20,000 bases of DNA from an uncultured virus (IMG/VR IMGVR_UViG_2061766007_000288) (IMGVR_UViG_2061766007_000288); one strand, 5' to 3'; positions 601-19,659 are shown, numbered from the stretch's first letter. Notes: generated from the letters alone by a model not told the origin. Numbers and translations: made by a program.

Positions 601-993
601 CTATTCCTTTGTCGGCGTTCCAGCCGGCATGTGTACGATAGGTTCTTCAAAAGCGGCGATTACCACCTTGTCGAGCAGTGCGGCGAATGGAATTCCGGCC
701 CACCTGGCGTGGTTGCGTGGGTCATTGTGAGGCTCAACTCCACCGACGACCATGGTAGTCAAAAGTTCAATGTGCCAAATCCGCTCATTCGGCCACCTGA
801 TGTTATGTTCAACAGTAATGAGGATAGGGTCATTCAGTGAATTCTTGTCCTTCGGGTAGACCTTGATCTGGGAGGGGCAGTAGGAAACTTCCACCCCGTA
901 TTTCTCGTTGCCGAGGTCGATTGCCTGTTTGATTTCGTCCGAGGTGAACTTGTCCTGCACGAAATCCTTGGAAAATCCCATCAAACTGTTCAT
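601..993 (-). CDS. Hypothetical protein
   Basis: Track ORF 601..1074. Start moved to ATG 993 (MNSLMG), which forms a TAATG overlap with the upstream stop. Confidence 0.7.
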   Translation of the reverse strand: MNSLMGFSKDFVQDKFTSDEIKQAIDLGNEKYGVEVSYCPSQIKVYPKDKNSLNDPILITVEHNIRWPNERIWHIELLTTMVVGGVEPHNDPRNHARWAGIPFAALLDKVVIAAFEEPIVHMPAGTPTKE

Positions 994-1547
994 TAGATTT
1001 CCTCCGGGTGTTGGAATGTTACAATTACTTCCACATTGTGGTCGTATGTAGTCATGGAACGAGTTTCGAACCACCTGTTGTTAGTATCATCAATGAGTAT
1101 AAACTCATCGGTTTCGGTGTTATCTATCCGTGAGGGGAAACTAGATTCATCCATAGCTTGCTGCACGAAACACATCTGTTTATCCAAACCAAATCGTTTC
1201 ATTGCACCGGGGATATGCAAATCTTCAAGTTCAACTTCATCCTTTGTATTGACCCACTTGTGCTTGTACACGCACTCGATAGAATCATCCTTAGTCCACA
1301 CACGGCCACGGTTTTCCTCCGGGATTTCCAGAGCATCGAATAACCACTTGACAATGTAGTCGCGAATTTCGGACTTGGTCTTCCATCCCCAGGTAAACAA
1401 ACTTACCTTGACCGGTAATCCATGTTCATGCTCAGCAATGGTTTCTAGAGCAAATCTCGATATCCGTTTGCACTGTTCTTCCAGTAGCGTACAGCTATAC
1501 AGGTCATCAATGAGCGTATTTTCGATGTCGATGAAGATTTCTGTCAT
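993..1547 (-). CDS. HAD-superfamily-like protein (putative phosphatase, variant motif I)
   Basis: N-terminal IFIDIENTL resembles hhhDxDxT with E as the second acid; LFTWG resembles motif II; FILIDDT resembles motif IV. Confidence 0.55.
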   Translation of the reverse strand: MTEIFIDIENTLIDDLYSCTLLEEQCKRISRFALETIAEHEHGLPVKVSLFTWGWKTKSEIRDYIVKWLFDALEIPEENRGRVWTKDDSIECVYKHKWVNTKDEVELEDLHIPGAMKRFGLDKQMCFVQQAMDESSFPSRIDNTETDEFILIDDTNNRWFETRSMTTYDHNVEVIVTFQHPEEI

Positions 1548-1582
1548 GCTCCAAATATAGCAAATGCCGGCAGGGCTGGCAA
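1548..1582 (-). promoter_or_regulatory. Promoter copy 1, predicted leaderless
   Basis: Minus strand: TTGCCA(1582-1577)-17 nt-TATATT(1559-1554)-6 nt-ATG(1547). Confidence 0.8.
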
Positions 1583-1599
1583 CTATTCATGAGAATCTA

Positions 1600-1914
1600 C
1601 TAGGGTAGAAATTGACGGTACCACCAGCAAATCATCCTGTTAATGATCGGCAGGCTCAACACTGCAACCAATACAAAGCATAAAAATCCTAGTGCTATGC
1701 AGAAACACCCACCTATCGAACACCGAACTATGACAACAAACGGGCATGTCATTGCAAACAGCCATACCCCAGTTATCAGGAGAATGACAATCATTGGGCA
1801 TATCATTTCCCTCCATACTTCCCGCAGCATCTTCCGGTTCCATCCAAGACACATATCTCGGTAGAATTCGGAAAGGTGGTCAATAATCTCATGTGTGTAT
1901 GCTTTGGGTGTCAT
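1600..1914 (-). CDS. Hypothetical membrane protein (about 2 TM helices)
   Basis: Two long hydrophobic stretches (MICPMIVILLITGVWLFAM; GGCFCIALGFLCFVLVAVLSL); fits operon packing. Confidence 0.7.
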   Translation of the reverse strand: MTPKAYTHEIIDHLSEFYRDMCLGWNRKMLREVWREMICPMIVILLITGVWLFAMTCPFVVIVRCSIGGCFCIALGFLCFVLVAVLSLPIINRMICWWYRQFLP

Positions 1915-1920
1915 ATCTTC

Positions 1921-2280
1921 CTACATGTGAGGTACATTACCTGATGGCTTTCCGGTCAGGTATCCATTGATACGACATAGGCATTGTTCAGTCCTCCACC
2001 TATCAATGTACTTATTCATCTGTTCCGTCATCGGGATGGGATGCAAGATGTCATCCCCGTACCATCTTCCAAGCAATCGGGCCTGCAGGCACAAGGCAAT
2101 CCCACGTTCCCATTCCTCCTCGGTAACATTCCACCCCTCGGGCGGCTTGTTCGGGAGCCAGAATATAGGCTCGGGGATGGACTCGTCATCCAGGTTCCTC
2201 GCCAGTCGATAACTTCTCATCTTTCTGCGCACACTGACTATCAAGTGTGGAAGCGGAATATCGGGAAATCGCTTGTGCAT
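1921..2280 (-). CDS. Hypothetical protein
   Basis: 119-aa ORF starting 1 nt after the upstream stop, with GGAGG SD just upstream. Confidence 0.7.
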   Translation of the reverse strand: MHKRFPDIPLPHLIVSVRRKMRSYRLARNLDDESIPEPIFWLPNKPPEGWNVTEEEWERGIALCLQARLLGRWYGDDILHPIPMTEQMNKYIDRWRTEQCLCRINGYLTGKPSGNVPHM

Positions 2281-2281
2281 A

Positions 2282-3361
2282 CTACCTCCCGATTGCCTTC
2301 ACGTAATCTTCGAGGATTTGGTTGTGGTGGAATGCCAGACGTGTCCTACGGGCCACGCTCAACGGGAACCATGCAGCTTCCGCGGCATCGTCGTCACCCT
2401 TGACCGGACCAAAGGTACCACGCACATACACGCCCACGTCATACGCCCAGTGGCCAGGCACGCTCTCACGCGGATCTTCCGGGATGTACACCTTCAACTG
2501 GTGGACCTGATTGGGGTAGACGACAAGGCCAGTTTCCTCATTGAGTTCTCGGCATCCGCAATCCTCGATAGGCTCATGCGGGTTGGTAAAGCCACCGGGA
2601 AGGGCCCAGTACCCGGCAAAGGGCCAACGCTTGCGACGCACCAGGAGCACCTGGTCCTCGCGACCGATGGCCGGCTCACCGATACCATTGATGACCACGG
2701 AGGTAACCGTGACCGAAGGCTTCGGGTAGTCGCCGGGCTTGTAGTTGGCAAGTTCCCGGTGTTCATCGGCCCAATGGTTCACCGGATTGTCCTGATGGTA
2801 CAGGCCATGCCGGAAGATGTACCCGAGAACTTGCGGAGAAACAGCCGTGCCCTCGTACATGGGGTTCATGAACATGTCACTACGGACAGCGGTGGACGAC
2901 ACGTCGGGCACATTCACGAAGATGGGCTTGATGTCGCCACGGTCGCCGAGTTCCGTATGGAAGTTGAAGTTGCGCCCACGGTTGAACACGCGGATGCTGT
3001 ACTTGCCGATAAGTTTCTCTGAATCCTTCCACTTGCCGGCAAGCAGGGCTTCGAGCTCGTCCATGCCGATAATGAGGTCAATGCCTGGGTCCTTCTTCTC
3101 GGACCCGGTGACATAGTTCCCATAGACCGTTTCGAGCAGATCGAACGTACGGACCGACTGCTTGTGGATATTGAGTTTCGGGAAACAGGTAATCAGCATG
3201 TCGTATCGGTCCTGGAACGAGGCACTGTACTGCTTCTCGTCATTCTCGGTCAGATAGACATGCACTTCCGGGTAGTTTTCCAGTAGATACTCGATGATGG
3301 CCTCGTGGCCGACGGTAAGCGGGTCAAATGCACCGCCATAGACTGCGATTCTCTTTTCCAT
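2282..3361 (-). CDS. Bifunctional NadD-like (nicotinate/nicotinamide nucleotide) adenylyltransferase - Nudix (ADP-ribose pyrophosphatase-like) fusion
   Basis: YGGAFDPLTVGH ((T/H)xGH motif), LIIGMD..WK, VSSTAVR and HGLY match the NadD fold. C-terminal Nudix box GGFTNPHEPIEDCGCRELNEETGL and LAFHH. Start set at 3361 after the AAGGA SD. Confidence 0.88.
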   Translation of the reverse strand: MEKRIAVYGGAFDPLTVGHEAIIEYLLENYPEVHVYLTENDEKQYSASFQDRYDMLITCFPKLNIHKQSVRTFDLLETVYGNYVTGSEKKDPGIDLIIGMDELEALLAGKWKDSEKLIGKYSIRVFNRGRNFNFHTELGDRGDIKPIFVNVPDVSSTAVRSDMFMNPMYEGTAVSPQVLGYIFRHGLYHQDNPVNHWADEHRELANYKPGDYPKPSVTVTSVVINGIGEPAIGREDQVLLVRRKRWPFAGYWALPGGFTNPHEPIEDCGCRELNEETGLVVYPNQVHQLKVYIPEDPRESVPGHWAYDVGVYVRGTFGPVKGDDDAAEAAWFPLSVARRTRLAFHHNQILEDYVKAIGR

Positions 3362-3683
3362 ATTTACCATTCCTTAATTCCGATAGGCAACGGCTCATCG
3401 AATGCAATGTAGTAGGTACCTATGGTTCTCGGTTCAATTTGGTGTTCCTGCTCAATGGCTTTCTTGATGAAGCCGGCGGCATGTTCCATTGAATCGAAAA
3501 CCACGTCCATCAATAGGTTCGTATATAATTCAATGTTGCCGTTTTTAGTGTCGGCTTGCTTCATAGTATAATTGTGCCAAATGGACATGCCGCTCGACCA
3601 CTGGGGAATCCACCCTTCAGCATTTTCTTTAACTCGATGTATCTTATCTATATATAGTTCCATATTTACCATTCCTTAATTCC
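3356..3683. repeat. Exact 26-bp direct repeat, copies at 3356-3381 and 3658-3683
   Basis: Both copies read GGAATTAAGGAATGGTAAATATGGAA on the minus strand: last codons, stop, SD and next ATG. Confidence 0.95.
3364..3663 (-). CDS. Hypothetical protein, paralog of 3666..3947
   Basis: Shared pattern Y.DK.HR.K....W.PQW......W..YT...ADT..G.IELY.....DV.F...Y..FD..LP.GIKEW. Confidence 0.8.
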   Translation of the reverse strand: MELYIDKIHRVKENAEGWIPQWSSGMSIWHNYTMKQADTKNGNIELYTNLLMDVVFDSMEHAAGFIKKAIEQEHQIEPRTIGTYYIAFDEPLPIGIKEW

Positions 3684-3947
3684 AAATGGGAGGCAATCGT
3701 CGAATTTGACATAGAATTTTCCATCGTACCCCTGGGTCAGGGCCTTCTCCATGAACCGGGTCGCTTGCAGTTCCGTATGGAACATGACATCGCGCCAGCT
3801 CTCGGAATACAGTTCAATGGAACCCATGGCTGTATCGGCTACCATCAGCGTGTAGCGGCTCCAACGGAGGAAACCACGCTTCCACTGCGGCACCCACCAC
3901 CCGTCAATCTTCTTGATACGGTGAGTCTTGTCGAAATAGACGGTCAT
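3666..3947 (-). CDS. Hypothetical protein, paralog of 3364..3663
   Basis: Same conserved pattern; ATGA overlap with the upstream gene. Confidence 0.8.
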   Translation of the reverse strand: MTVYFDKTHRIKKIDGWWVPQWKRGFLRWSRYTLMVADTAMGSIELYSESWRDVMFHTELQATRFMEKALTQGYDGKFYVKFDDCLPFGIKEW

Positions 3948-4213
3948 TTCTTCTTTGCCTTCTTTTCAGCCTTCTTGTCCGCATTGTTCACGATAATGGG
4001 AAGTCTTCCCCACATCGCAGTAAACGGATCCGGCTTCGGTGTCGGTCGTTTGAACTCGATACCCTCCATGATGGGAGTGACGTCGCAACTACGTTCACAG
4101 AGCCACTTCTTTCCCAGTTTTTCCAGGCTCGTATCCTTTTCGATACGGTATCCGGCCACCATGTTCCCATTGGTCCACATGACCATGTAGTAGTAAATCT
4201 TATGCGGTTTCAT
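3944..4213 (-). CDS. Hypothetical basic protein
   Basis: 89-aa ORF with a Lys-rich tail, overlapping both neighbours; AAGGA SD upstream. Confidence 0.7.
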   Translation of the reverse strand: MKPHKIYYYMVMWTNGNMVAGYRIEKDTSLEKLGKKWLCERSCDVTPIMEGIEFKRPTPKPDPFTAMWGRLPIIVNNADKKAEKKAKKK

Positions 4214-5021
4214 TGTCTGTGTCCTTCTTTAAGTCATCGACCCACCGGTCGCACTTTTCGCGCCAGTTGGTAATTGTCTGTCTGAATGCCTTGTCACCAA
4301 GCACGCCGTTGATAATGTGCTGACGGTCGGTGATGTTCCCATTGACCTGCAGTTTCAGGCCGAACTCCACTGCCGCACGGGTGAAATTCAGCGGGACATC
4401 CGCCTCGTAGAAGTCGTTCTCGTTGGCAATGGGCGCCGGGGCGCACTGGCCGAGCCACCGCGACACCTTGGGCGAAAGCAGCACTTCCCTCATGAAGTCA
4501 TGCACAGGTTTTCCATCTTCGCCGATAGTTGCCTTGGAGTCGGCATCGGCCAATGTATGGAGCCTCGGGAACCACTGGTGGGTCACAATCTGCATGATGC
4601 GGAACCTGGACTTCATCTGGCCGAGAACCAGTGCGTTCATGTGGTTCTCGATTACCCAGTGAAGCGGCACGATATTGGGGATGACACCGCCAACCTCGTT
4701 GCGGATCCATTCATTGAGTACATCCAGGCTGTAAAGTTCATGACCGGCCATATTCTTGCCCTCGTTCTTGTCGAGCGCACGCTTCTTGCCGGCATCGTGG
4801 AACAGCGCAATCATCACGTCCACCCAGTCATGCCCCGGTCGGAGATTATTGATTACAAGGGCCGTATGGTCCCAAACGTCGCCCTCGCAGTGTACCTTCG
4901 GATGGGCGACACCCATCATTTCCTTTTCGATGAACGGGAAGAAATCCCGGTTTTCGAGGATTGTAGAAACCGGGTCTTCCGAGTTGAAAATGTCGATTGC
5001 CTTGTTGATTTTAGGATTCAT
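4200..5021 (-). CDS. HD-domain phosphohydrolase resembling the C-terminal half of HD-containing class II CCA enzymes
   Basis: FFPFIEKEMMGVAHPKVHCEGDVWDHT, ALFHDAGK, GHE, ENHM, ADAD. Start set at 5021 (MNPKIN) from promoter geometry. Confidence 0.82.
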   Translation of the reverse strand: MNPKINKAIDIFNSEDPVSTILENRDFFPFIEKEMMGVAHPKVHCEGDVWDHTALVINNLRPGHDWVDVMIALFHDAGKKRALDKNEGKNMAGHELYSLDVLNEWIRNEVGGVIPNIVPLHWVIENHMNALVLGQMKSRFRIMQIVTHQWFPRLHTLADADSKATIGEDGKPVHDFMREVLLSPKVSRWLGQCAPAPIANENDFYEADVPLNFTRAAVEFGLKLQVNGNITDRQHIINGVLGDKAFRQTITNWREKCDRWVDDLKKDTDNETA

Positions 5022-5056
5022 ACCCAAAATGTAGCAAAATGGACAGAAGGTGGCAA
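5022..5056 (-). promoter_or_regulatory. Promoter copy 2, predicted leaderless
   Basis: TTGCCA(5056-5051)-17 nt-TACATT(5033-5028)-6 nt-ATG(5021). Confidence 0.8.
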
Positions 5057-6235
5057 CTAGTCCTTCACCAGGAACAAAAACCTTCTGCGAGAGTTTGTAA
5101 ACTTGTTGCATTGTATGTAGTCCTCATCGGTAATGTACTGTCCATCACCGACCATACGTCTCTCTTCTTGCCGCTCAGATTCAGTGTGCATTATGAGCCG
5201 GTCGCCAACAAGATCAACCCTTGCCGACCTAAACCAATGAATCTGCGTTTTCACGTTCCCATCAGCGTCAAGCAAGTCCGTAATACATACTTCCTGCGAC
5301 ACAAAGGGGGCCACATTACCAAAAGTTGACTTTCGGATAGTCCCGTTTTCTGGACCAGCAAGCGCCAATGAACCAAATCCCAACAAGTCCCGCATGATAT
5401 CCGGTGCACTCTTTCCGGTTTCCCGGATTTCATCATCCTCATTCTCATTACTGCGAACTATGTCACACCTTCCCTGGTCAGTCGTAATATACAGAGATGG
5501 ATATGAGTCACCCTTATTTAATTGTCGCGGTATCCTGACGCCGCACATTGCAAACGCACGACCATTCGACCAGGAATTAGAGTACATTTTGCCGCAATCC
5601 ACGGCACCGCTTCGAATTACCTTTCCGCCCAACGCCGAATACAGGCGATACAGGTCATCAAGGGTTGGCAAATGCCAGCCGTCCGGTATGGCCTCCTTGA
5701 TGTCCGCATGCGAATACAATATGCCATGCGAACCATCTTCGGCCGACACGCTGACAGTAAGGGACGGTTCAAGAGCACGTATAATCGCTTCCGTCTCTGG
5801 AGTCAACGCATCCGCCTTGTATCGATATGTGATAAGTTCCCTTGCCTTACCGAATCGTGAATAATTATGCGAATGCGGCATGTTGGAATGTGTCAACAAC
5901 ACAAGCGAAGATCGTCCGTACGTAGCGGAGTTACCCACCTGGTCGGATAACCTAAACTCCCCGATACCCCGACCATTGCTATATTCATTGGCAAGCATAT
6001 CGGTAACGACGGCCACACTCGAGTCGTCATGTGGGAGGTTCGCTTTCTTCAAGGCGTCACGCACAGTTTGCTCACGTTCATTGCGCAACTGTTCCACGTA
6101 GTTATCACCTTGGCCAAAATCAAGATATGGCGTCAAGTCCTCCAGTATTGAGCCATCGATAATGGTGTCACCAATCTTGACCCCCTCAAGAAACACGTTA
6201 TATATCGGATCATACACATCTATGTTGCCATCCAT
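5057..6235 (-). CDS. Hypothetical protein with the central FISUMP (Fib_succ_major)-like motif; possibly the 3' half of one gene with 6245..7576
   Basis: HGILYSHADIKEAIPDGWHLPTLDDLYRL resembles FISUMP YGxLY...CPxGWHLP; no clear SD before ATG 6235. Confidence 0.65.
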   Translation of the reverse strand: MDGNIDVYDPIYNVFLEGVKIGDTIIDGSILEDLTPYLDFGQGDNYVEQLRNEREQTVRDALKKANLPHDDSSVAVVTDMLANEYSNGRGIGEFRLSDQVGNSATYGRSSLVLLTHSNMPHSHNYSRFGKARELITYRYKADALTPETEAIIRALEPSLTVSVSAEDGSHGILYSHADIKEAIPDGWHLPTLDDLYRLYSALGGKVIRSGAVDCGKMYSNSWSNGRAFAMCGVRIPRQLNKGDSYPSLYITTDQGRCDIVRSNENEDDEIRETGKSAPDIMRDLLGFGSLALAGPENGTIRKSTFGNVAPFVSQEVCITDLLDADGNVKTQIHWFRSARVDLVGDRLIMHTESERQEERRMVGDGQYITDEDYIQCNKFTNSRRRFLFLVKD

Positions 6236-6244
6236 GCTGACAAA

Positions 6245-7576
6245 TCATCGCGTGGAAGTCTTTACCACATAGCTATTCGGCACATTATGGTGAACATACA
6301 CCGAGACATTAACCCGTGCATTGCATTCCTGTATTACGTCATTTGCTGTTTCGTCATCGGCAGGATGGCGCCAGTCAATCGAGCATGTAAGCCCGTCTTC
6401 GGTGCGCGTGACACACAGGATCGGGAGAAACACCTTGATTTCCGGACGTACGGGGCATAATGTGGTTTCCAGAGTTTCCAGGTTTCCCGGAATTTCAGGA
6501 ATTTTCGTTGGCGAGTACCTGAGGGGTTCGGCCATCCACGTCCTGCCTCCAATCGTCTCTGTACGGTAGGTATTGCCGTCCCTCTTGTCGGTAAATGTCC
6601 CGGAACGGCGAATGCGGTTCTTGCCAAGGCATATACTCTTCGTAATCACCTTCCTATCAGCAATCACCTTGGCATTATTCGCAAGTCGCTCCTCTCGCAT
6701 GCGGACCGCCAGCTCATGATATGTATCGTGTCCATAGGGCGGGCATAATTCAAAGAACGGCCCACCCAGCAAGTCCGAAAGTTCAACCTCGTCGTACTTG
6801 TTGTCACCCTTGCGGACATCCAAATTGTCATGGGCATGGTTCCACCGGTTATTCACATGGACGAGACGACCGCCGGGTCCGATGTCGATACCCAGCATGG
6901 ATTCGCCATACAGTTCATCGGTTTCGGTCAAATTCTCGAACCCCGGAAGAACAGCCAGGTAAAGTTTCACCGGCAGCGTCTTATCCCCGGCATTGGCCAT
7001 CCGGTAATGGTCAAACATGCTCTGCGAATTGAGGTGACACCATACATGCGGCTTAGTGTATTCGGCATATTCTTTCGTCGTTTCAAAGTCATCAAGCGGG
7101 ATTATCTTATAACGTCTCTGCCCATACTTCCGCCTACGGAGCATGCGTTTCATCGCGCTCCAATGCTTGGCTATCCTCTGGCCATATATTTCATCCAGTT
7201 CCTTGAATGAGGGACGCCGGCCGTCCATACCGAGATAACGGTCATACTCACGCGAATGGGCAATGGAAATAATGCGGATTATGTCATGAAGACGGCCAAT
7301 CGGCCCAGGTTCTTCATCACCCGTACCAAGCGACAATTCACCAAACGCAAGTCTTGCAGCGCCCGGCGCAAAACGTATCTTGCACTGTCCGTCCCTGAAA
7401 AAGTGGGCACGGACATCCTGGTATGCTGCACGGGTCCAGGAAGAAATCCCCCTTGTCTGGGCGACTTCCTCATAGATAGCCTGGAGACGCCCCCTGTTTG
7501 GGAGGGCCATCAGGACCTTCTTGGTGTAGCGGTAGGCATCGCCTTCTGAGCCATTTGCAGTTTCGCTCGGTAGCAT
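6245..7576 (-). CDS. Hypothetical phage protein with the N-terminal FISUMP-like motif near its C-terminus
   Basis: GTFTDKRDGNTYRTETIGGRTWMAEPLRY resembles FISUMP FTDxRDGxxYxTVxIGxQxWMAENL. The upstream region carries WC...YGESM...RWNH motifs of unknown function. GAGG SD. Confidence 0.7.
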   Translation of the reverse strand: MLPSETANGSEGDAYRYTKKVLMALPNRGRLQAIYEEVAQTRGISSWTRAAYQDVRAHFFRDGQCKIRFAPGAARLAFGELSLGTGDEEPGPIGRLHDIIRIISIAHSREYDRYLGMDGRRPSFKELDEIYGQRIAKHWSAMKRMLRRRKYGQRRYKIIPLDDFETTKEYAEYTKPHVWCHLNSQSMFDHYRMANAGDKTLPVKLYLAVLPGFENLTETDELYGESMLGIDIGPGGRLVHVNNRWNHAHDNLDVRKGDNKYDEVELSDLLGGPFFELCPPYGHDTYHELAVRMREERLANNAKVIADRKVITKSICLGKNRIRRSGTFTDKRDGNTYRTETIGGRTWMAEPLRYSPTKIPEIPGNLETLETTLCPVRPEIKVFLPILCVTRTEDGLTCSIDWRHPADDETANDVIQECNARVNVSVYVHHNVPNSYVVKTSTR

Positions 7577-7584
7577 CGTTCTTG

Positions 7585-9075
7585 CCTCGTAAAAAGTATA
7601 GAAAGTATAGGCGGAATAGCCTATGGCTTAAACATAGCAATTTACGGTTGTGTTGACAACATGGTTCCGTAGACGGTTAAAGAACTCGTCCACCAGTGCC
7701 GCCCTACCATCGCTGGTAAGTATGCACTGAGCATCCGTCCCACATAACTGCGGGGTTTCCTCGGTAGTTTCGCCACACCCCGAGAGGGATGTGGCCAGAG
7801 CCACCAAGTCCGCTGGCGTGAATTTCCGACGGGCAACGTCGGTATTGAATCTTATCTTGAGTTCGCAGAACAGGGCTTCCGCAAGGATATTGATGGCGCC
7901 ATTGACATCACGGTCGATAGCCAACCCGCACTCCTCACAGATATATTCCCGTTCGGACAGGGAAAGGTCCTCTTTCCGTCCACCGCATCCGGAACATGTC
8001 TTGCTTGACGCGAACCAACGGTCCACGAAAAGCAGCAACGTTCCGAGCTTCCTGCACTTGTATTCGAGAAATCTCCTTATCATCCCGAACCCACAGTCCG
8101 CTATCGCGGAGGCAAGCCTGTGGTTTGACATCATACCCTTAACGTTCAGGTCCTCGATGGCTATCACCATGTTGTCTCGGACCATCTCCGTAGTCGCCTT
8201 GTGGATTGCATCCTTACGGTAATTGGCGACATACGAATTCTTCTTGTTGAATAATTTCTTAACTCTTTTGTATTTGGATGACCCCTTCCTGCGACGGCTC
8301 ATGCGCCGCTGGTACCGTTTCAACGCCTTCGCATGCTTGCGAAATATCTTGGCATTCAGGTAGGTGGTGCCATCGTTCTTGGTAATCAGGCTCTTAACAC
8401 CGAGGTCGTATCCCGCTATCCCGTTGCTGGTAAGATTATTCTTTATAGCAGTCTCGTCATAGGTGTAGGATATCGAGACGTACCACTCCCCGTTACTTTC
8501 TTTGGAAATGGTATAGTTATTTATCTTTCCGTCAAGGCATTCTTTGCATACAGTCTCCGCCAGCTTGACCTGTTTCTTTATCATCGGCAGCTTGATGAAT
8601 TGTGCATTAACAAGACGAGCCTGATCGTTCTCTATGTAGAATGCACGCTTCGAGGTATATTTCTTCCGCTTAGGAAAACCGAACTGTTTCGGGTTCTCGT
8701 AGTGCCTCTTCTTCGCCTGGCAGAAGTTCTTGATTGCCTGGTCCATGGAGCCTTTCGGGCTCTCGTACATCCAGTCCAGCTTCTCCGCATTGAACTCCTT
8801 ACGGAGCTCTGCACAGGTAACGCTTTCCTGACCGGCCTTCTTTTTCTCGAACCACCTGTCCCTCGCCCAGTTATATGCATAGCGGGCACAACCGCATGCA
8901 CGGTTAAGAACATGCGCTATCGAACTGTCCGTCTTCAGCATTATCTTCTGGGAACTGGTTTGCATACAAAAAGTAAATGTCCCAGCAACGCCTATTGTGG
9001 TATTTAACGCTGCCGGGACATTCAAAACTGTTTAGTATTCAATACAAGAAATACCACTAACTTGTATCAATACAT
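7585..9075 (-). mobile_element. Putative non-autonomous tnpB-only element; boundaries uncertain
   Basis: No tnpA adjacent. 3' side has a hairpin (7607-7624) and a tandem 9-mer AAAGTATAG (7593-7610). 5' side has a 15-bp hairpin (8976-9022) and an imperfect inverted repeat (9035-9073). Confidence 0.5.
7628..8965 (-). CDS. tnpB: TnpB RNA-guided endonuclease (IS200/IS605 or IS607 family), catalytic residues intact
   Basis: N-terminal HTH (RACGCARYAYNWA), RuvC-I GYDLG, RuvC-II IAIEDLNV, Zn finger SSKTCSGC..CEEC, RuvC-III IDRDVNGA. Start at ATG 8965 (MQTSSQK). Confidence 0.93.
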   Translation of the reverse strand: MQTSSQKIMLKTDSSIAHVLNRACGCARYAYNWARDRWFEKKKAGQESVTCAELRKEFNAEKLDWMYESPKGSMDQAIKNFCQAKKRHYENPKQFGFPKRKKYTSKRAFYIENDQARLVNAQFIKLPMIKKQVKLAETVCKECLDGKINNYTISKESNGEWYVSISYTYDETAIKNNLTSNGIAGYDLGVKSLITKNDGTTYLNAKIFRKHAKALKRYQRRMSRRRKGSSKYKRVKKLFNKKNSYVANYRKDAIHKATTEMVRDNMVIAIEDLNVKGMMSNHRLASAIADCGFGMIRRFLEYKCRKLGTLLLFVDRWFASSKTCSGCGGRKEDLSLSEREYICEECGLAIDRDVNGAINILAEALFCELKIRFNTDVARRKFTPADLVALATSLSGCGETTEETPQLCGTDAQCILTSDGRAALVDEFFNRLRNHVVNTTVNCYV

Positions 9076-9184
9076 AAAGTTTATAACATCTCATTAAGAA
9101 ATATAGATATTTTCACCAATTTAATTCTTACATATTACTTACATTTTCGTATTTATATAGTTTTGATAACTAATATCGTACTAA

Positions 9185-9315
9185 AACACGAAACTGCGGC
9201 CTTGCAGGGGCGTCCCCCTGCTCGACCGCAGCCTCCGAGGACCCTTCGATGACACACATCAGCCGTTTAGACTCCTTGCGGAGGGCCGACACACATCATA
9301 GTAGGAATCCTCTTC
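9185..9315 (-). ncRNA. Candidate structured non-coding RNA of unrecognised family
   Basis: GC-rich island in an AT-rich gap. Minus-strand pairing: 9312-9305 with 9244-9237; 16 bp 9299-9284 with 9264-9249 (7 G-U pairs); CUCC-GCAA-GGAG hairpin; then a second long hairpin 9231-9194 followed by UUUCGUGUUUU. Confidence 0.55.
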
Positions 9316-9348
9316 GTTAATTTTGTATCATTTTTAGAATGACTACCA

Positions 9349-10326
9349 CTACCTAGATCCCGTCGAGCCGAAACCACCCCTAGACGGATCGGTCATCTTC
9401 CCTTCTACAAAGGCAATTTTCGGCTGGCGTTCCATAATACGGAACTGGCAAATCTTATCATCCTTGTTGATAACGGTGTCGCGCATGGCGATGACGGACA
9501 TCTTCCACCAATCTTCTGGACCAGAATAGGAATTGTCAATGATACCAACATGGTTAGCCTGGATAATACCCCACTTCTTGAATGTAGAAGAACGCGGAAC
9601 AATATGGGCTTCGTAGCCTTCCGGGAGCTTCATGGCCACGCCGAGGTGGATGAGCTTGTGTTCGCCCTGCTTCAACTCGACCGTTTCTGCAGCATACATG
9701 TCGATCCAGTCGCCCTTCTTTTCAATGGAAAGGCGCTTCACGCTGTCGTTGAGGTACTGAACGGTGATCTTCATTCCATCGGGCTCGGGCTCGGGCTTAA
9801 AGGCAGTTTTCAGCTTATCTTCCATATTCCCTAGTTCGACTTCCATGTCAGGACCGTCCTCGATAGAAAATGTGCCGAGACCGTTAATGAAGATTTTGGC
9901 ATTCTTCATACCGCTCTCCACTGAAGTCACGAAATCCAAGGATCCGATCATGATGTTGTCACGTAACATGCCTGTCACCGGGTGGTCCCTGTCCATGCCG
10001 CACATGGTGAGACATATATCGTATTTGGCGAGANNNNNNNNNNTAAAGGCAGTTTTCAGCTTATCTTCCATATACCCGAGATCGACTTCCATGTCAGGAC
10101 CGTCCTCGATAGAAAATGTGCCGAGACCGTTAATGGAGATTTTGGCATTCTTCATACCGCTCTCCTCTGAAGTCACGAAATCAAAGGATCCGATCATGGT
10201 GTTGTCACGTAAAATTCCTGTCACCGGGCGGTCCCTGTCCATGCCGCACATGGTGAGACATATATCGTATTTGGCGAGAACTTCGCGGATTCTTTTGTTG
10301 ATATTTGTGATAACAATGTTACTCAT
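9349..10326 (-). CDS. dut: Trimeric dUTPase (9349..9774) fused via a PEPEPDG linker to an unknown N-terminal domain that appears twice around an N gap
   Basis: GDWIDMYA, IVPRSS, GIIDNSYSG, KICQF and SRGGFGSTG correspond to dUTPase motifs I-V. Confidence 0.92.
   Translation of the reverse strand: MSNIVITNINKRIREVLAKYDICLTMCGMDRDRPVTGILRDNTMIGSFDFVTSEESGMKNAKISINGLGTFSIEDGPDMEVDLGYMEDKLKTAFXXXXLAKYDICLTMCGMDRDHPVTGMLRDNIMIGSLDFVTSVESGMKNAKIFINGLGTFSIEDGPDMEVELGNMEDKLKTAFKPEPEPDGMKITVQYLNDSVKRLSIEKKGDWIDMYAAETVELKQGEHKLIHLGVAMKLPEGYEAHIVPRSSTFKKWGIIQANHVGIIDNSYSGPEDWWKMSVIAMRDTVINKDDKICQFRIMERQPKIAFVEGKMTDPSRGGFGSTGSR
9798..10279. repeat. 236-bp near-identical duplication around an N gap (9798-10033 and 10044-10279), probably two haplotypes scaffolded in tandem
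   Basis: Manual alignment shows 10 substitutions; both copies abut the gap. Confidence 0.85.
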
Positions 10327-10341
10327 ATTGTTTCCTTTTGT

Positions 10342-11688
10342 TTAAAAATTCTTCCAATCCATCGGAAGCCAATTCTCTGCGAGTTCCACGGAGAACTTGC
10401 CGATTTCTTCCGGTGTATATGCCTTTTCCTTCAATCCGGATTCGGCAAACGCCTTGTTCACTTCCTTGCCAAGCTCGCTGATGTAGTCGATGATGTCATC
10501 AAACGTCCAATCACCGTTCTTGATGGCCAGGAGGAAGTCACGGTCATTGTTGTACGGATGCTTGTTGTAATCCATGCAGACCTTGTTGCAGAGGTCCCTG
10601 TCGGCACGGTAGACCGGGACGGTATGCTCGGTGGCGATACCGTAGGCGGTAAGAAGCAGACGGACACAGTGCATGATGTTCTTCGCATCATATCCCTGTC
10701 CATGCTTCAACGTGGTGTTGTAGCGTTCCTCATTACGGGCCTTGACCCAGTCCCAATACTCGTGCCACTTCTTGCACTTACGCGCAAAGTCGTTGCGGTT
10801 CACGAAGATATGGGCAACGGGGCTCAAACCCTTCGGGATGGAGTTGAGTTGGATATCATCGCTGCGCTCGATGTCACGGACGACACCATAGCCCCAACGC
10901 CACTTGTGCTCAGGAAGCTGACGGACACCCTTGAATACCTTGGAGAGGCATTTCCGGACGAATTCGCGGATACTGATGGACAGCGGCTTCTTCTGGAAAT
11001 ACATAGCGTAAATACAGTCGCCATGGTCGATACGGGCGATAGAGAACCAACGCTGCACTTCCTCCGGCTTGCCGCGATAGTTGGCCTTGACCCATTCCAT
11101 GAGTGGAGTGGCAAGGTTGCCATCGAGCACGTAGATGAAATCGACAAAGCGCGGCCTGTCTTTTGGCTGCGGGTCGAACACCTTCCTGTTCAGGCCCTTG
11201 GCGCGGTCAACCTGGCCACGGGCATACTCGCAGAACGACTTGTCACAGCGCATGGTGAGGAAGTCAAATCTCTGGCGGAGGATTTCCAGGATGGACTGGC
11301 CGATAAACACGCAGTGCCTCGGCGCATAGAGCATTTCGAGAGCCTGGGGATTTGCGGAGTTCAATTCGGTAAGGAACTTCGTGATGTCCCAGTAGACCTC
11401 GTTGTTCTTCTCGTCGGCAATCTGGCTAGGTGCATCGTGCTTTACACGCTCGCTCCATTTCAGGATATACACGCCGTGGATATCCACGTCGGATGTCTCG
11501 GTCGCGAGACCGAACGACTGCGAACCCGCGGCAACCTTGATAAGGAGGATACCCTTTTCATGGACCCTCTTCTCGGTCTCGGACATGGCGCCATTGGTCA
11601 CCTGTTCTTCCCAGTAGCGTTCGAGTTCCTTCGAGAATGGTGGGAGTTCGGGTATATTGTTCTTTAAAATTTCGCTATTATCGTTCAT
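10342..11688 (-). CDS. Pol-beta superfamily nucleotidyltransferase, RlaP/YcgL-like (PF10127)
   Basis: AGSQSFGLATETSDVDIHGVY (GS..DxD), WDITKF..L..ANPQALEML, GYDAKNIMHCVRLL, LLAIKNG. Start at 11688 from promoter geometry. Confidence 0.85.
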   Translation of the reverse strand: MNDNSEILKNNIPELPPFSKELERYWEEQVTNGAMSETEKRVHEKGILLIKVAAGSQSFGLATETSDVDIHGVYILKWSERVKHDAPSQIADEKNNEVYWDITKFLTELNSANPQALEMLYAPRHCVFIGQSILEILRQRFDFLTMRCDKSFCEYARGQVDRAKGLNRKVFDPQPKDRPRFVDFIYVLDGNLATPLMEWVKANYRGKPEEVQRWFSIARIDHGDCIYAMYFQKKPLSISIREFVRKCLSKVFKGVRQLPEHKWRWGYGVVRDIERSDDIQLNSIPKGLSPVAHIFVNRNDFARKCKKWHEYWDWVKARNEERYNTTLKHGQGYDAKNIMHCVRLLLTAYGIATEHTVPVYRADRDLCNKVCMDYNKHPYNNDRDFLLAIKNGDWTFDDIIDYISELGKEVNKAFAESGLKEKAYTPEEIGKFSVELAENWLPMDWKNF

Positions 11689-11728
11689 GTTCAAAATATA
11701 GCAAAAATAATGGGCGGTGGAAACGCCC
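11689..11728 (-). promoter_or_regulatory. Promoter copy 3, predicted leaderless, overlapping a short terminator-like hairpin
   Basis: TTTCCA(11723-11718)-17 nt-TATATT(11700-11695)-6 nt-ATG(11688). Stem GGGCG/CGCCC (11712-11728) followed by ATTATTTTT. Confidence 0.75.
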
Positions 11729-11739
11729 GGGTATAATTT

Positions 11740-11954
11740 TTATGCAAGATTTACCGACAAAGGAACATGCCTTCGTCCCAAGGCTATCTCGTGCACTTTG
11801 GCAAGGTCATCAAAATTGAAATATCTGTCCATTCCATCCACCTGGTATGCACAGATCGGACATGTGCCGCGCTTGCATTCTACACGGTATTCCTCGTTTT
11901 TCCGAAGAATTTGAACATCACTTCCTTCGGAAACACGATTACGAACTTATCCAT
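11740..11954 (-). pseudogene. Small gene apparently frameshifted at an A5 run
   Basis: ATG 11954 (TGATG overlap) gives MDKFVIVFPKEVMFKFFGK. One extra A at 11897-11901 would continue it as NEEYRVECKRGTCPICAY...NLA* to TAA at 11740. Confidence 0.5.
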
Positions 11955-12445
11955 CATTTCACCACCTTTGCATCCTGGAACGCTTCTTGAAGTTTTTCAA
12001 CCAGTTCTTTTTCATATAGGCCGCTGAGAGAATCATTCGAATTACTGTATTCGAGATCGGTCAAGATGCGGAAGAACGAATCATTGAAACGGTCAGACTG
12101 AAAGTGATCGCGGAACTCCTTTGGAAGGGTTATCGTGAGCGTCAGTTCATGCTCATTGACTTCCAGACCGCGCAGCTTGGCAACCACGTCCTTGATGCTC
12201 ATTTCCTCGTCATCGTACCGGTACTTGTTGTGATATACCTCGACCGTGTGGGCATCGTCCTCCCACTGGACCGAACCGTCCGGACACGGGAACAGTTCCA
12301 TTTCGGGTGGGACAAACGGCTGCAGAATCTTGGCCCGCATGATGGTCTCATGAGTAATGGCCTCGTTCGGACGCCCGTCGCCGGACATGTCGTACCACCC
12401 AGGCTCAGCACAATCCTTCTCGATGCTGTCAAGTGTATTCCTCAT
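11954..12445 (-). CDS. Hypothetical protein
   Basis: Track ORF trimmed to ATG 12445 (MRNTLD), which forms a TAATG overlap with the upstream stop. Confidence 0.72.
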   Translation of the reverse strand: MRNTLDSIEKDCAEPGWYDMSGDGRPNEAITHETIMRAKILQPFVPPEMELFPCPDGSVQWEDDAHTVEVYHNKYRYDDEEMSIKDVVAKLRGLEVNEHELTLTITLPKEFRDHFQSDRFNDSFFRILTDLEYSNSNDSLSGLYEKELVEKLQEAFQDAKVVK

Positions 12446-13284
12446 TAGATAAGCACCTTCTTGAAAGCGTCGTAGTTTTCGGTGTCCGCACCGCGACAGT
12501 AGACGGCGAACTCGATTGCCTTGAAGCGCTTGCGGAATTCCGGCACGACTTCCTTGTAGGCCGATGCAACCACCTTCGGATCGTTGCGGAATGCCCCGCA
12601 CCCGAATGCACCGAGGATTACTACATCAACGAACTCCCGTGCAGCTGCACTCAGGATCTGACGGGCACGGGAGACATGGATGGCCTTCAATTCCTCGGGG
12701 GAGATATCCGGCGCCAGTTCACGTTCCTGGTTGTACTTGGAAATGTTCTTCTCGCGCAGGTTGGGTGCCGCGCAAGTGATTACGTCGATGAACACCGGTT
12801 CCGGGAGCCAGTCGTAGTCATCATTACGGAGAATTGCGACATTCGGCGTATAGATGATGTCGTCGTTGTGCAACGGGCCCACATTCTTGCGGTGCGGGTC
12901 ATAGAAACGGATATCGGCTTCCTTGGTCGTGAGGCACGGGTAGAGCGTGGTGCAGCGGCAGATGCATTCTTCCTGGGCGGACGAACCGGTCACGACACCG
13001 CCACCAGGACGGGTAGCGCTCGCGAAATTGAGTACGGCCACCTTGCCACTTGGATTGGCCTTCTTCCACCTCAGCGCACTGTCGATCGAACGGTCACGGG
13101 AAACCGTGACGGGACAATCGTCATCGTAAATGGGCGCGATGGACTTGATGTCCACCGGTTTCAAGTGGAACAACTGGTTCGAAATGGACTCGTTGATTAC
13201 CTTCCCTAGGGAGGCATCTCCCTTGATCTTGGCCATCGTATTCTCGAAGATGCCAATGTTGTAACTTCTGATGTCGTTATACAT
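12445..13284 (-). CDS. TIGR02452-family microbial PARG-like macrodomain protein
   Basis: VAVLNFASATRPGGG...SAQEECICR, IIYTPNV, VITCAAPN, ILGAFGCGAFRNDP. Start set at 13284 (MYNDIR). Confidence 0.92.
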   Translation of the reverse strand: MYNDIRSYNIGIFENTMAKIKGDASLGKVINESISNQLFHLKPVDIKSIAPIYDDDCPVTVSRDRSIDSALRWKKANPSGKVAVLNFASATRPGGGVVTGSSAQEECICRCTTLYPCLTTKEADIRFYDPHRKNVGPLHNDDIIYTPNVAILRNDDYDWLPEPVFIDVITCAAPNLREKNISKYNQERELAPDISPEELKAIHVSRARQILSAAAREFVDVVILGAFGCGAFRNDPKVVASAYKEVVPEFRKRFKAIEFAVYCRGADTENYDAFKKVLI

Positions 13285-13672
13285 TCTTTGATCCGCGGTT
13301 AATTTCCTTGATTTCATTGTTCTTTTCGGCAACCAGGTTGGCCACCTTCGTAAAGAAGGATTCCGTTTCCAGTTCAACCATGCGATGCTGATGTTCACAC
13401 ATCGTCACGAATTCGCGGGACAATGTTTTGCACGGAAGGAAGGAAAATGTCCTGGCGATTACCGTATTACGATACCAGGTATCAACGAAATTCAACTGAA
13501 TCTGCGCATTGAGGCACTTGAATGAACCGTTGGCGCATTCGCTAATCCAGAATTCCAGGCGCACGCCATCCTTTCCCTTAGTGAACCGCCTACGGTCACG
13601 GTCGGTCTCGAAACCGCATGCTGTCAACCAGTCCCCAAATTCCTGAATTTCTGACCATGTAGGTTTTGCCAT
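13277..13672 (-). CDS. Hypothetical protein
   Basis: ORF packed between the CCA and PARG genes; start MAKPTW lies 2 nt after the upstream stop. Confidence 0.7.
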   Translation of the reverse strand: MAKPTWSEIQEFGDWLTACGFETDRDRRRFTKGKDGVRLEFWISECANGSFKCLNAQIQLNFVDTWYRNTVIARTFSFLPCKTLSREFVTMCEHQHRMVELETESFFTKVANLVAEKNNEIKEINRGSKNV

Positions 13673-13674
13673 GA

Positions 13675-15023
13675 TTACCACATCCTGTTCATTGAATTGT
13701 ACCAGCCATCCTTAATGTTCTTATAGTCATCGAGGATGACTTCCCGCAGACGCTTGCCAAATTCCGGCCCTTCCTGAATACCTTCTGCAGCAACTTGCTT
13801 TCCGTATTCGGGTTCGCCCTTCCGGCAACGGGCAATGATTTCGCATATTGTCACCGCGCCATCGCCCAGGGCAGTTCCATACGGGTTCAGTTCGCGGTAC
13901 AGGTTGGTGATAATCCTGAATTCCGGGGAAGCGGCCATATCAACAGAATAGAGCAGCTTCTCATCGGCAAGGCCGAACTTGCCGGACATGATGCCGATAA
14001 GGCCATCCCTGATGCGTTCAGCCATACGGATTTCCTTGCGGGTACAGCGGAGCCATTCCATTGTCTTCTTCGGCAGCATGCAGATGAATACGGACATGAT
14101 TGTGTCTGCGTCCACGTTGCCGCGTACCAAGGTTTCCACCAGCATGCGCTGACGGTCGAAGCAGAAGCCGGCATCCTGGAAAATCGAACCGATACCGTAA
14201 TCGGACAGGTAACCAATCATGTTCACAAATGGCATAACTCCGTACTCGGCGCACTTGTGGAGCTCGTCATGGATACGTTCCATGGCAACGTTCTTTACAT
14301 GGTGGAGACGGCTACGCATCGCCAGCTTGGTAAGATCGTCAATCACGAAACCGAAACGGGCAGCAAATCGCATTCCACGAATGATACGGAGGGAATCCTC
14401 GGTCATGCGGTCATACGGGTTGCCCACTGCGCGGAGCCGACGGAACACCAGGTCATCGATGCCACCGAAGTAGTCTATGACATTGAGGTCCTTGTCCAGG
14501 CCCATCGCGTTGATTGTGAAGTCACGACGGGCGCAGTCCTCCTTGAAGGACTTGGTGAAATTCACAGAATCCGGGTGACGGCCGTCGGAGTAGTTGCCAT
14601 CGACACGAAACTGGGTCACCTCGAACACCAGGCCCTCGTAATGGACCAGGATGGTGCCNNNNNNNNNNTGAAATTCACGGAATCCGGGTGGCGACCGTCG
14701 GAGTAGTTGCCATCGACACGGAACTGGGTCACCTCGAACACCAGGCCCTCGTAATGGACCAGGATGGTGCCATGTGTCTCGCCGTTATTGGAATCGCAGC
14801 GGAAGGCAAGTCTCAGGTCCTCGATGGGCATGTTGGTCGCGATGTCCACGTCATGGACAGGGACTTCGGCATCGGTACCCGGAACCATGCCCAACTGGCG
14901 AATAACGAGGTCACGCACCGCACCGCCGGCAATGTATGCCTCGTGCTTGCGCTTGTGGATTTCGGCAAGAAGACCAATGCCCTTCCTGACGGTCTCCGAA
15001 ATGTACTTTTCTTCAATCTTCAT
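13675..15023 (-). CDS. cca: Class II tRNA nucleotidyltransferase (CCA-adding enzyme) lacking an HD domain; split in the ORF track by an assembly gap
   Basis: AYIAGGAVRDL..HDVDIAT (DxD), EVTQFR, EDCARRDFTINAM, EDSLRIIRGMRF (EDxxR), ERIHDEL, GPEFGK. Collapsing the 103-bp duplicate restores one ORF. Confidence 0.9.
14556..14771. repeat. 103-bp duplication around an N gap (14556-14658 and 14669-14771), probable haplotype/scaffolding artefact
   Basis: 4 substitutions, all synonymous in the cca frame. Confidence 0.88.
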
Positions 15024-15058
15024 GTCCCAAATGTAGCAAAAAGGTTGCCTTGCGGCAA
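15024..15058 (-). promoter_or_regulatory. Promoter copy 4, predicted leaderless
   Basis: TTGCCG(15058-15053)-17 nt-TACATT(15035-15030)-6 nt-ATG(15023). Confidence 0.8.
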
Positions 15059-15061
15059 CCT
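15038..15061 (-). terminator. Intrinsic terminator overlapping promoter 4
   Basis: AGGTTGCC-GCAA-GGCAACCT perfect 8-bp stem with a GNRA loop, followed by TTTT, 6 nt after the stop at 15068. Confidence 0.8.
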
Positions 15062-16756: not shown

Positions 16757-17418
16757 GCGGGCTTGTCACCCGTGATGCCTTCATCGAGGTATTTCTTGGC
16801 GAGTTTCTTGCCAAACTTGGCATCGACACCCATTTCGGCCATCACGGCCTTGACAAACAGGCCAAACTCGTACACGGCCACGGGAGCGTCAGTGTTTCCT
16901 TCAATCGTTCCCACGAACGCATCGTCCCAACGCTTGTCCAGCTTGCCGACGATCGGCATGTCCCACCGGATGGAGTCACCGCGTTCCTCGATATCATGCA
17001 GCGCTTCCATGATTATTGGGGCATGTTCATACTGATACGGAAGCGACCGGACCGTATTGTAGTTGAAATCATCATGGGCCAAGGTATAAAGCTCACTTGC
17101 CATGAAATCGGCATCAGCAAGCTGTTCCTCGGTGTAGTCACCCATGGATTCCGCCCAGTTCGGGCCATAGCTTTCCATTTTCGAAAGGACAGAAAGCTCG
17201 GATTCATATACGGGAACCTCGATGCCGTGCTCGTTCACGATTGTCCCAATCATGCCCTTTTCGCAGCCGTCCGGGAACATCATGTACTCGTTCTGCTTGT
17301 TGGTACGGCGGGTGGCTTCCTTAAACCTTGCCTTGACCGCCTTGGAGAAACCTTTGAGGTTCAGCGGATGTGGTCCGAACAGATCCTCAATCTTCTGCTT
17401 TTCTTCTTCCTTATCCAT
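16757..17418 (-). CDS. Hypothetical phage protein with an internal repeat; 3' end lost in the N gap
   Basis: Start MDKEEE after AAGGAAGGA. Segments GMIGTIVNEHGIEVPVYE and AFVGTIEGNTDAPVAVYE resemble each other. Confidence 0.72.
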
Positions 17419-18127
17419 TACGTCCTTCCTTTGTAACGGTATTCCAATCAGGTACATCATGGAAACATTGTCCTGGGTTCAATCCAAGATTATATGCGAC
17501 CGAATCCGGCACGGTCACACTGGAATAGCCGGGGGCCGGCACTCTCATATACTCGCGGGTCGGGTTCGCGGGCTCCTTGTCACCGTATCTGCGAACCATG
17601 ATGTAGCATTCGCCCATTCTCGCCGTTCGCACCCAGGGAACAATCTCATTATCTTTCCCTTCCGGATAAGTCACTGTATTTGCATATACAGGTGTATGTG
17701 ATATCTCATCCTTACATCTAACGAGAACCTGGCCATTGCCCTTGGCTACCCATTCCTGCAGTTCTAGGTAAGTGACAATCGAAGGCTCATCTTCGTCGGT
17801 GGCTATCTTGGCATCATCCTTCGTATCGTTGAGATAGTCATAGACTGCCTTGGCACCCATGCCGGTAGTCTCGGCACAATGGTCCCAGGTGGCACCCATG
17901 TTCTGTGCGGCCATGCCGTCACCGCGGGCAAACACGCGCTTGACACCGAGCCCTGGGTTTACATAGAACACTTCCGCCAGGTATGGGGCCCCGGTTTCCG
18001 GGTCGTTGGCATCCTCGTCATCCCATACAAACATCATCTTCGGAGGATCGAAGGTCACCGGCTTATCGGGCATAAATTCCTTTACGTCCGACAAGCCCAT
18101 CTTGAATAACTTTTTTGTTTCGCTCAT
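17411..18127 (-). CDS. Hypothetical phage protein
   Basis: Track ORF trimmed to MSETKK at 18127 from promoter geometry. Confidence 0.75.
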   Translation of the reverse strand: MSETKKLFKMGLSDVKEFMPDKPVTFDPPKMMFVWDDEDANDPETGAPYLAEVFYVNPGLGVKRVFARGDGMAAQNMGATWDHCAETTGMGAKAVYDYLNDTKDDAKIATDEDEPSIVTYLELQEWVAKGNGQVLVRCKDEISHTPVYANTVTYPEGKDNEIVPWVRTARMGECYIMVRRYGDKEPANPTREYMRVPAPGYSSVTVPDSVAYNLGLNPGQCFHDVPDWNTVTKEGRNG

Positions 18128-18162
18128 GACAAAAATATAGCAAAAAAGACACGGCTTGGAAG
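18128..18162 (-). promoter_or_regulatory. Promoter copy 5, predicted leaderless
   Basis: CTTCCA(18162-18157)-17 nt-TATATT(18139-18134)-6 nt-ATG(18127). Confidence 0.75.
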
Positions 18163-18171
18163 AAAGCCGTG
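18142..18171 (-). terminator. Intrinsic terminator overlapping promoter 5
   Basis: CACGGCTT-6 nt-AAGCCGTG 8-bp stem followed by TCTTTTTT. Confidence 0.75.
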
Positions 18172-18193
18172 CCATTGAATTGTTAAAAAATGT

Positions 18194-19656: not shown

Positions 19657-19659
19657 TCG

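Follow-up and report, generated by a model that had tools for sequence, protein, structure and literature searches.

The window considered here is a stretch of 20,000 nucleotides (nt) of the uncultured viral genome IMGVR_UViG_2061766007_000288, in which a repeated promoter-like element precedes genes for a HAD-fold phosphatase (HAD), a free HD-domain protein (HD), an RlaP-family nucleotidyltransferase (RlaP) and a CCA-adding enzyme (CCA). An earlier interpretation, made without database searches (the sequence-only reading), had taken this element as the mark of a co-regulated phage RNA-repair system. We find that the promoter is real but that there is no dedicated RNA-repair regulon behind it, and that the genes make up a kit of a type already described, apart from one variant feature. 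The explanation we favour, with a probability of about 0.7, is a general early promoter that serves a known type of tRNA-maintenance kit without a separate regulon, which removes an apparent anti-defence regulon. The window probably falls within the early and accessory half of the genome of a T4-like jumbo phage from the rumen, the host of which is probably a member of the Fibrobacterota.

The consensus GTTGCC-N15-TGCTA(T/C)ATT-N6-ATG lies ahead of HAD, HD, RlaP, CCA and one unlabelled gene. The pattern TGCTAYATTTNNNNYATG matches the window exactly five times, on the minus strand only (1545-1562, 5019-5036, 11686-11703, 15021-15038 and 18125-18142), against 0.03 matches expected, and none of 200 shuffles reached five. 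A real open reading frame (ORF) follows each motif ATG, these being ORFs of 184, 273 and 448 amino acids (aa), the CCA gene and an ORF of 238 aa, which confirms that four of the five copies directly precede the four named genes. In the element a 17-nt spacer separates the -35 (TTGCC) from an extended -10 (TG-c-TA(T/C)ATT), and the ATG stands 6 nt past the hexamer; the -35 differs by copy. It is of the TTGCC type at HAD (1545..1583; TTGCCA, 17 nt, TG-c-TATATT, ATG 6 nt past the hexamer), HD (5019..5057; TTGCCA-17-TACATT-6-ATG) and CCA (15021..15061), and TTTCCA at RlaP (11686..11728; TTTCCA-17-TATATT-6-ATG), with none clear at the fifth copy (18125..18173), which leads into a 238 aa gene without a family match (17411..18127, minus strand). 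The distance from motif to ATG is that expected of a leaderless transcript from a sigma70 consensus promoter, and on this spacing the motif-led genes would be leaderless.

Contig-wide tests were made on two close relatives from IMG/VR, G001 (224 kb, 59% complete) and G002 (203 kb, 52% complete), whose RlaP proteins are 95% and 94% identical to that of the window and whose gene order is similar. TGCTAYATT occurs at 44 sites in G002, with an ATG at +6 in 22 and at +7 in two and a -35 present in 28, and at 31 sites in G001, with an ATG at +6 in 11. The histogram of ATG offsets peaks at +6 in both genomes, and a control pattern gave no sites in the same scans. The 24 leaderless heads of G002 comprise the four named genes, eight genes with unrelated Pfam labels (two glycosyltransferases, a RecD-like helicase, an NAD-dependent DNA ligase, a radical SAM protein, a weak PolB-exonuclease match, HU and a formylglutamate hydrolase) and 12 unlabelled genes, three of them too short for a family scan. 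Further leaderless heads in G001 are an SbcC-like gene and a NIF3 gene. As expected of an early promoter, the 30-115 kb block of G001, with its polymerase, primase, helicase, portal, capsid and baseplate genes, holds just one of the 31 sites. Genome G085 (253 kb, 99% complete) has 11 leaderless copies of the motif, and profile searches of it gave no match to CCA, HD, RlaP, RtcB or the PF09414 ligase.

The sequence-only reading had named a motif preceding arbitrary genes genome-wide as the outcome that would speak against a regulon. Because the motif heads unrelated genes in G002, where 20 of the 24 leaderless heads lie outside the proposed system, and occurs without the kit in G085, the dedicated-regulon reading is refuted by its own test. 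The distribution of other RNA-end genes agrees. RNA ligases are leaderless in none of nine loci (six RtcB, three Rnl), the RtcB of G001 being the second gene of an operon at 75.5 kb, in the replication block, with no motif, and Tpt1, PTH2 and IF3 of G002 are likewise not leaderless. The IF3 carries two N-terminal IF3_N stretches and is encoded in G002 (L006:2472-3152) as the second gene after a 46-aa leaderless ORF, as well as in G001 (118.5 kb) and G088 (204.7 kb).

With the -35/-10 arrangement and an AUG at a fixed 6-7 nt, the motif has the geometry of a sigma70 promoter. The phylum of G004 (Chitinivibrionales) was sampled as the candidate host phylum, and motif plus ATG in 81 of its genomes gave 63 against 14 for the reversed control. 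Of the ten such host-phylum loci inspected, two have the motif ahead of a ribulose-phosphate epimerase gene and one ahead of a tRNA-Arg gene, and three others give short ORFs only. The motif thus appears to behave as a host-type sigma70 general early promoter. Three of the five window promoters also overlap a terminator-like hairpin, namely those of RlaP (hairpin at 11712-11728), of CCA, where the -35 lies within the hairpin (15042-15061, z -3.8) and a T run follows, and of the fifth gene (10-pair hairpin at 18148-18173, z -5.6). The T run abuts the extended -10, giving a 40-nt terminator-promoter-start cassette. Hairpins of z<-2 were found at 10 of 44 sites in G002 and five of 31 in G001 compared with five of 150 random 35-mers, so a hairpin over the promoter is a tendency and no rule.

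A contig-wide check for enrichment of RNA-repair genes, which the sequence-only reading had proposed, gave a modest excess of tRNA-end genes in G002, with p from 0.0005 to 0.13 according to gene set and background; the test covers one genome and a gene set picked post hoc. Four of the six genes CCA, RlaP, HD, HAD, Tpt1 and PTH2 are leaderless there; p is 0.0005 when the background is all 255 scanned ORFs, 0.011-0.023 when it is restricted to those of recognisable function (0.011 with 61 such genes) and 0.13 without HD and HAD. At distant loci, CCA is leaderless in 11 of 13, HD in two of 11 and HAD in eight of 18. Nine of the 11 HD loci form one clade (66-97% identical), in which HD mostly follows a leaderless 64-aa ORF, and we therefore counted lineages, including the window clade, which gives four of six leaderless for CCA and three of four for HD. 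In two of two distant phages RlaP is not leaderless, as it has a leader in G003 and lies inside an operon in G088. Genes unrelated to RNA also keep the leaderless state, including the SbcC-like gene in both G001 and G087 and a UDP-galactopyranose mutase-like gene in seven loci of one clade. NAPRTase is leaderless in none of nine loci and NadD-Nudix in none of eight. Early need, together with joint inheritance of promoter and gene, would explain why leaderless tRNA-end genes persist.

The CCA gene (13675..15023, minus strand; PF01743) encodes a class II CCA-adding enzyme without HD motifs, in which the DxD motif A (DVDIAT), the RRD motif (RRDFT), the EDxxR template motif (EDSLRIIR) and the flexible loop (YSDGRHP) are all present. 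Among solved structures it is closest to CCA-adding enzymes (E 4e-45; poly(A) polymerase reaches 1e-18), and its best NCBIfam family is PRK13299, below cut-off on the two pieces into which a gap splits the window gene. A 103-nt duplication (14556-14658 / 14669-14771) and an N gap interrupt this gene in the window, and must be a scaffolding artefact since it is one intact 411-aa ORF in both G001 and G002, where the G002 copy spans L007:16847-18082. The HDxGK motif is absent from all 11 phage CCA proteins examined. None of the 41 tRNA genes of G002 or the 53 of G001 encodes CCA, with tRNA ends placed by acceptor-stem fit, and tRNA maturation is therefore a sufficient reason for a phage CCA enzyme. 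Maturation would be its first job, with repair a further putative role. The main tRNA array of G002 lies ~8 kb upstream of the CCA gene. A scan of the window found no tRNA gene, and family scans of it found no RNA ligase, as the sequence-only reading had noted; its suggestion to look further was borne out in the close relatives, which carry tRNA arrays, tmRNA, Tpt1 and PTH2 and, in G001, an RtcB ligase.

Two further observations concern these genes. The tRNA genes (L007:5241-8779 in G002, L023:6945-10613 in G001 and others) have C at the first tail position in 31 of 41 cases in G002 and 38 of 53 in G001; the first tail positions often read CTA or CGA, which resembles a conserved processing signal. 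CCA and a longer HAD homologue diverge from a short common intergenic region, both leadered, in L115 / L120 (G088 263.4-263.6 kb) and in L158.

The free HD protein (4200..5021, minus strand, 273 aa) has the body-HD-tail layout of half a class II CCA enzyme, with H40, H44, H52, H75-D76, H94, H127 and D161 invariant. These residues include the HxEG..H and HDxGK motifs and the later H, H and D residues of an HD domain, and the protein is homologous to CCA C-halves. Neither HD nor HAD matched anything in Pfam at E<=0.1 or in NCBIfam. An HD profile retrieved 1161 representatives at E<=0.001; 30 of these proteins were scanned, 29 of them from the best 150 matches, and 22 of the 23 of at least 420 aa have a PolyA_pol head with the match on the C-terminal half. 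The best full-length match (P0080, residues 237-443, E 7e-32) aligns over body, HD and tail, and the predicted model superposes on residues 220-429 of 3wfo with Z 13.2. Foldseek returned nothing at E<=0.001 for HD or HAD, and a sequence search of solved structures gave no significant match for HD, HAD or RlaP. Judged by this homology, the free HD protein is what HD-bearing CCA enzymes have as their C-terminal half. The CCA gene lies 1.6-3.3 kb from the free HD in 10 of 11 distant loci, and the eleventh sequence ends at the HD gene. The HD domain of E. coli Cca is described as stripping 2',3'-cyclic phosphate off tRNA ends (PMC6961547, PMC10673834). The single PF01743 enzyme in each of five genomes of the candidate host phylum carries no HD motif; provided that the host has been guessed correctly, the phage HD may therefore supply something that is really missing there.

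Among the wider set of HD homologues, the close homologue P0075 (E 2.5e-56) is fused to a beta-helix domain. A NAD salvage set (NAD synthase, NadD-Nudix, NAPRTase and an isochorismatase-family nicotinamidase) and PARG are repeatedly found beside HD and CCA genes, with salvage loci in G002 at L006:9137-9889, L008:6759-7838 and L008:14784-16178 and elsewhere at L142:4530-7679.

The HAD gene (993..1547, minus strand) encodes a stand-alone HAD-fold phosphatase of 184 aa with a DxE motif I (D7/E9), T52, candidate lysines K86/K123 and D153-D154, identified from residues invariant among 28 aligned homologues. The fold is Rossmannoid (model pLDDT 91) and has the four HAD motifs I (Dx[DE]), II (T), III (K) and IV (DD), and HAD also resembles a NIF phosphatase cluster (0.91). 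Its top fold match is the 3'-phosphatase of T4 Pnkp (Z 6.9), within 1 Z of other HADs and ArgRS. RNA-end genes lie within 6 kb of HAD in nine of 13 distant loci (CCA in three, RtcB in five, Rnl in one), two pairs of which look duplicate. From the model and these neighbours, HAD is probably an RNA 3'-phosphatase. One homologue lies between two RNA-ligase genes in L155. Matches of the HAD profile in G085 and G086 were not taken as HAD genes, since they span no more than the C-terminal extension of longer homologues.

RlaP (10342..11688, minus strand, 448 aa; PF10127 / phrog_388) is a Pol-beta nucleotidyltransferase with an intact GS...SDVD motif, and matches PF10127 over the N-terminal nucleotidyltransferase region (E 5e-16, 59.6 bits against a cut-off of 23). 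RlaP homologues are reported to act on RNA in vitro, adding one or two nt to 3'-OH ends (PMC12776372). An Rnl-type ligase lies ~4 kb from RlaP in G003 and 57 kb from it in G088, with none in G002 (52% complete), and the RtcB of G001 lies ~80 kb from RlaP under another promoter. No polynucleotide kinase was identified in the partial genomes G001 and G002. The RNA-end function that the sequence-only reading had claimed for all four proteins is credible by family, profile and fold searches, with the activities themselves predicted.

In the mechanism we propose, host sigma70 RNA polymerase would read the motif as the general early promoter of the phage. Transcription would start on the AUG at about half of the copies, and since the start is placed on the AUG, the first genes of many early transcripts would be leaderless whatever their function. 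The four kit genes would then be expressed early, along with genes for DNA metabolism and glycosylation and unlabelled genes. The CCA enzyme would add CCA to the CCA-less tRNAs of the phage; the free HD would clear damaged acceptor ends of 2',3'-cyclic or 3' phosphates, leaving them open to re-tailing by the HD-less CCA enzyme; HAD would dephosphorylate RNA 3' ends, and RlaP would refill lost nucleotides ahead of ligation. Any counter-defence role is putative.

Several points weigh against this account. Transcription start, translation and enzyme activities are all predicted, and where the host enters the argument, its assignment to the Fibrobacterota is itself a suggestion from sequence. The excess of tRNA-end genes among leaderless heads would not be expected from a function-blind promoter, nor would CCA and HD genes that stay leaderless across deep lineages. 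The HD gene is frameshifted in G001 near residue 185 (L111:1483-2303), through sequencing error or decay, and HD homologues also adjoin NAD-salvage genes. Four of the 13 distant HAD loci have no RNA-repair neighbour, the fold match of HAD is no higher than Z 6.9 and is tied, and motif I reads DxE in place of DxD. RlaP is described as leaving a 3'-OH, an end that RtcB is unable to join (PMC12776372). A search with PF09414 gave no ATP-grasp ligase in the partial genomes G001 and G002; the blank result with PF09511 is no evidence that Rnl1 is absent, as that family had no match in control genomes either.

The leaderless CCA and HD lineages, the eight of 18 HAD loci and the enrichment among recognisable genes, set against the NAPRTase and NadD-Nudix genes without the leaderless state, could also mean that, under a general promoter, enzymes that heal and re-tail tRNA ends are kept leaderless by selection and so go on being made when host defences impair initiation led by a Shine-Dalgarno (SD) sequence. 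Leaderless mRNA can do without the anti-SD in some strains, according to PMC9031893, which also relates that other laboratories failed to reproduce the MazF stress-ribosome model. None of the nine ligase loci examined, which stand for the core of repair, is leaderless, however, nor are Tpt1 and PTH2, RlaP lacks the state in both distant phages, genes such as the SbcC-like and mutase-like ones keep it without any link to RNA, and the test set was picked once the data were seen. Cleavage of tRNA, moreover, halts elongation on leaderless mRNAs as well. We consider such selection rather unlikely. A more elaborate version joins compact terminator-promoter-AUG early cassettes with selectively leaderless tRNA-end enzymes, makes HD in trans the only CCA-type end-cleaning of the infected cell, because neither the phage CCA nor the five host-phylum PF01743 enzymes have HD motifs, and has the phage IF3 later silence leaderless mRNAs. 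IF3 at a high level is reported to inhibit leaderless translation (PMC9031893). Of the explanations considered we give this one the least credence.

A repair role may also be dispensed with altogether, if CCA does no more than mature the tRNAs of the phage, and if HD and HAD act as phosphatases on small molecules as part of the adjoining set of NAD and nucleotide salvage genes. The CCA-less tRNA genes alone account for the CCA enzyme, NAPRTase or NadD-Nudix stands beside the free HD in most loci, the HD domain of the E. coli CCA enzyme is credited with nucleotidase and phosphatase activity, and the HAD fold matches are non-specific. Against this, HD retains the CCA body and tail region beyond the catalytic core and occurs together with HD-less CCA genes, HAD is found near three different kinds of RNA-end enzyme, and RlaP homologues act on RNA in vitro (PMC12776372). 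This alternative seems improbable to us, and a general early promoter with a tRNA-maintenance kit remains the reading we prefer.

Several genes further down the presumed transcripts have SD-like leaders, including a NadD-like adenylyltransferase fused to Nudix (2282..3361, minus strand), which lies downstream of HD and belongs to NAD salvage, not RNA repair, and a dUTPase (9349..10326, minus strand) directly downstream of RlaP, where an N gap with a 236-nt duplication is likewise a scaffolding artefact. A gene for a Microbial PARG / TIGR02452 macro-type protein (12445..13287, minus strand), with a provisional start codon, follows CCA in its presumed transcript. T4-like portal, capsid, sheath, polymerase, primase and clamp-loader genes are present in G001. 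A Fibrobacterota host is suggested by FISUMP-like stretches (below cut-off), a homologue named Fibrobacter sp. and the promoter itself; DNA similarity to the dUTPase gene in 47 of 151 genomes of the phylum of G004 (65-81% identity) lacks an outgroup control and is given no weight in the host assignment. Contigs from bovine and sheep gut RNA libraries hold related sequence (four runs, as contigs of relatives with word shares of 0.07-0.15 and without start sites).

Other features of the window were noted in passing. Two adjoining ORFs at 5057-7576 carry the weak FISUMP stretches and correspond to a single 840-aa ORF at the same place in G002. An IS200/605-type insertion with TnpB (7581-9183) is skipped by the contig of one RNA-library run, and a 404-nt RNA-library contig over 7713-8116 has a depth of 411 compared with ~43 in neighbouring contigs, a pattern that a guide RNA could produce. 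An IscB-like RRXRR-HNH gene occupies 18446-19951 together with a HEARO RNA at 19722-19951 (122.9 bits), and two short tandem paralogues with a common 48-nt end lie at 3364-3947, of which relatives have one or none.

For an uncultured clade of jumbo phages from the rumen, start codons and early transcription units can be fixed with the promoter consensus and the leaderless rule, which also point to a host among the Fibrobacterota. A free HD-tail module beside an HD-less CCA enzyme, in at least four phage lineages, offers a simple test of tRNA 3'-end cleaning and re-tailing in trans, and the same pair could show whether phages counter tRNA-end damage in that way. Literature searches of open papers found no account of this promoter or of the split CCA/HD pair, although the supplements of PMC7824862 may list such HD proteins.

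The inventory itself has precedents. Section 3.4.9 of Iyer et al. 2021 (PMC7824862) covers a jumbo-phage set of RlaP, CCA, HAD, KptA, PTH2, IF3 and RtcB/Rnl ligases, and the window and its close relatives hold the same inventory beside 41-53 tRNA genes and tmRNA; the inventories described for XacN1 and HGTV-1 match the window kit. The window differs in that its HAD family has no Pfam match and its HD is a free module derived from CCA, and promoters are not discussed in that section. Compared with the E. coli-type bifunctional Cca, the phage CCA has the same head motifs and flexible loop and the free HD the same metal-binding H and D residues, but the phage uses two genes 8.7 kb apart and its CCA polypeptide contains no HD. 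As the phage CCA retains its own HD-less body and tail, the pair would consist of an HD-less enzyme and a separately derived HD-tail module rather than one gene cut in two. The phage RlaP joins PfRlaP, PaRlaP and T4 NrdC.11 through its PF10127 match above cut-off, but it is a phage form of 448 aa and lies outside any rtcB operon, in comparison with the family as presented in PMC12776372. HAD shares the capless fold of the T4 Pnkp 3'-phosphatase (rmsd, root-mean-square deviation, 3.7 over 118 residues) but is 10% identical to it, has DxE as motif I and lacks a kinase domain. Cas12a3 is a defence that cuts tRNA tails (PMC12851939), and nothing here ties it to the window phage. The promoter of lambda cI is an example of a sigma70 extended -10 promoter with a leaderless mRNA. 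The phage motif resembles it in its -35, 17-nt spacer, TGn-TAYATT and AUG at the expected +1, but is used in this way at about half of the motif sites of a lytic phage, some of which overlap a terminator-like hairpin.

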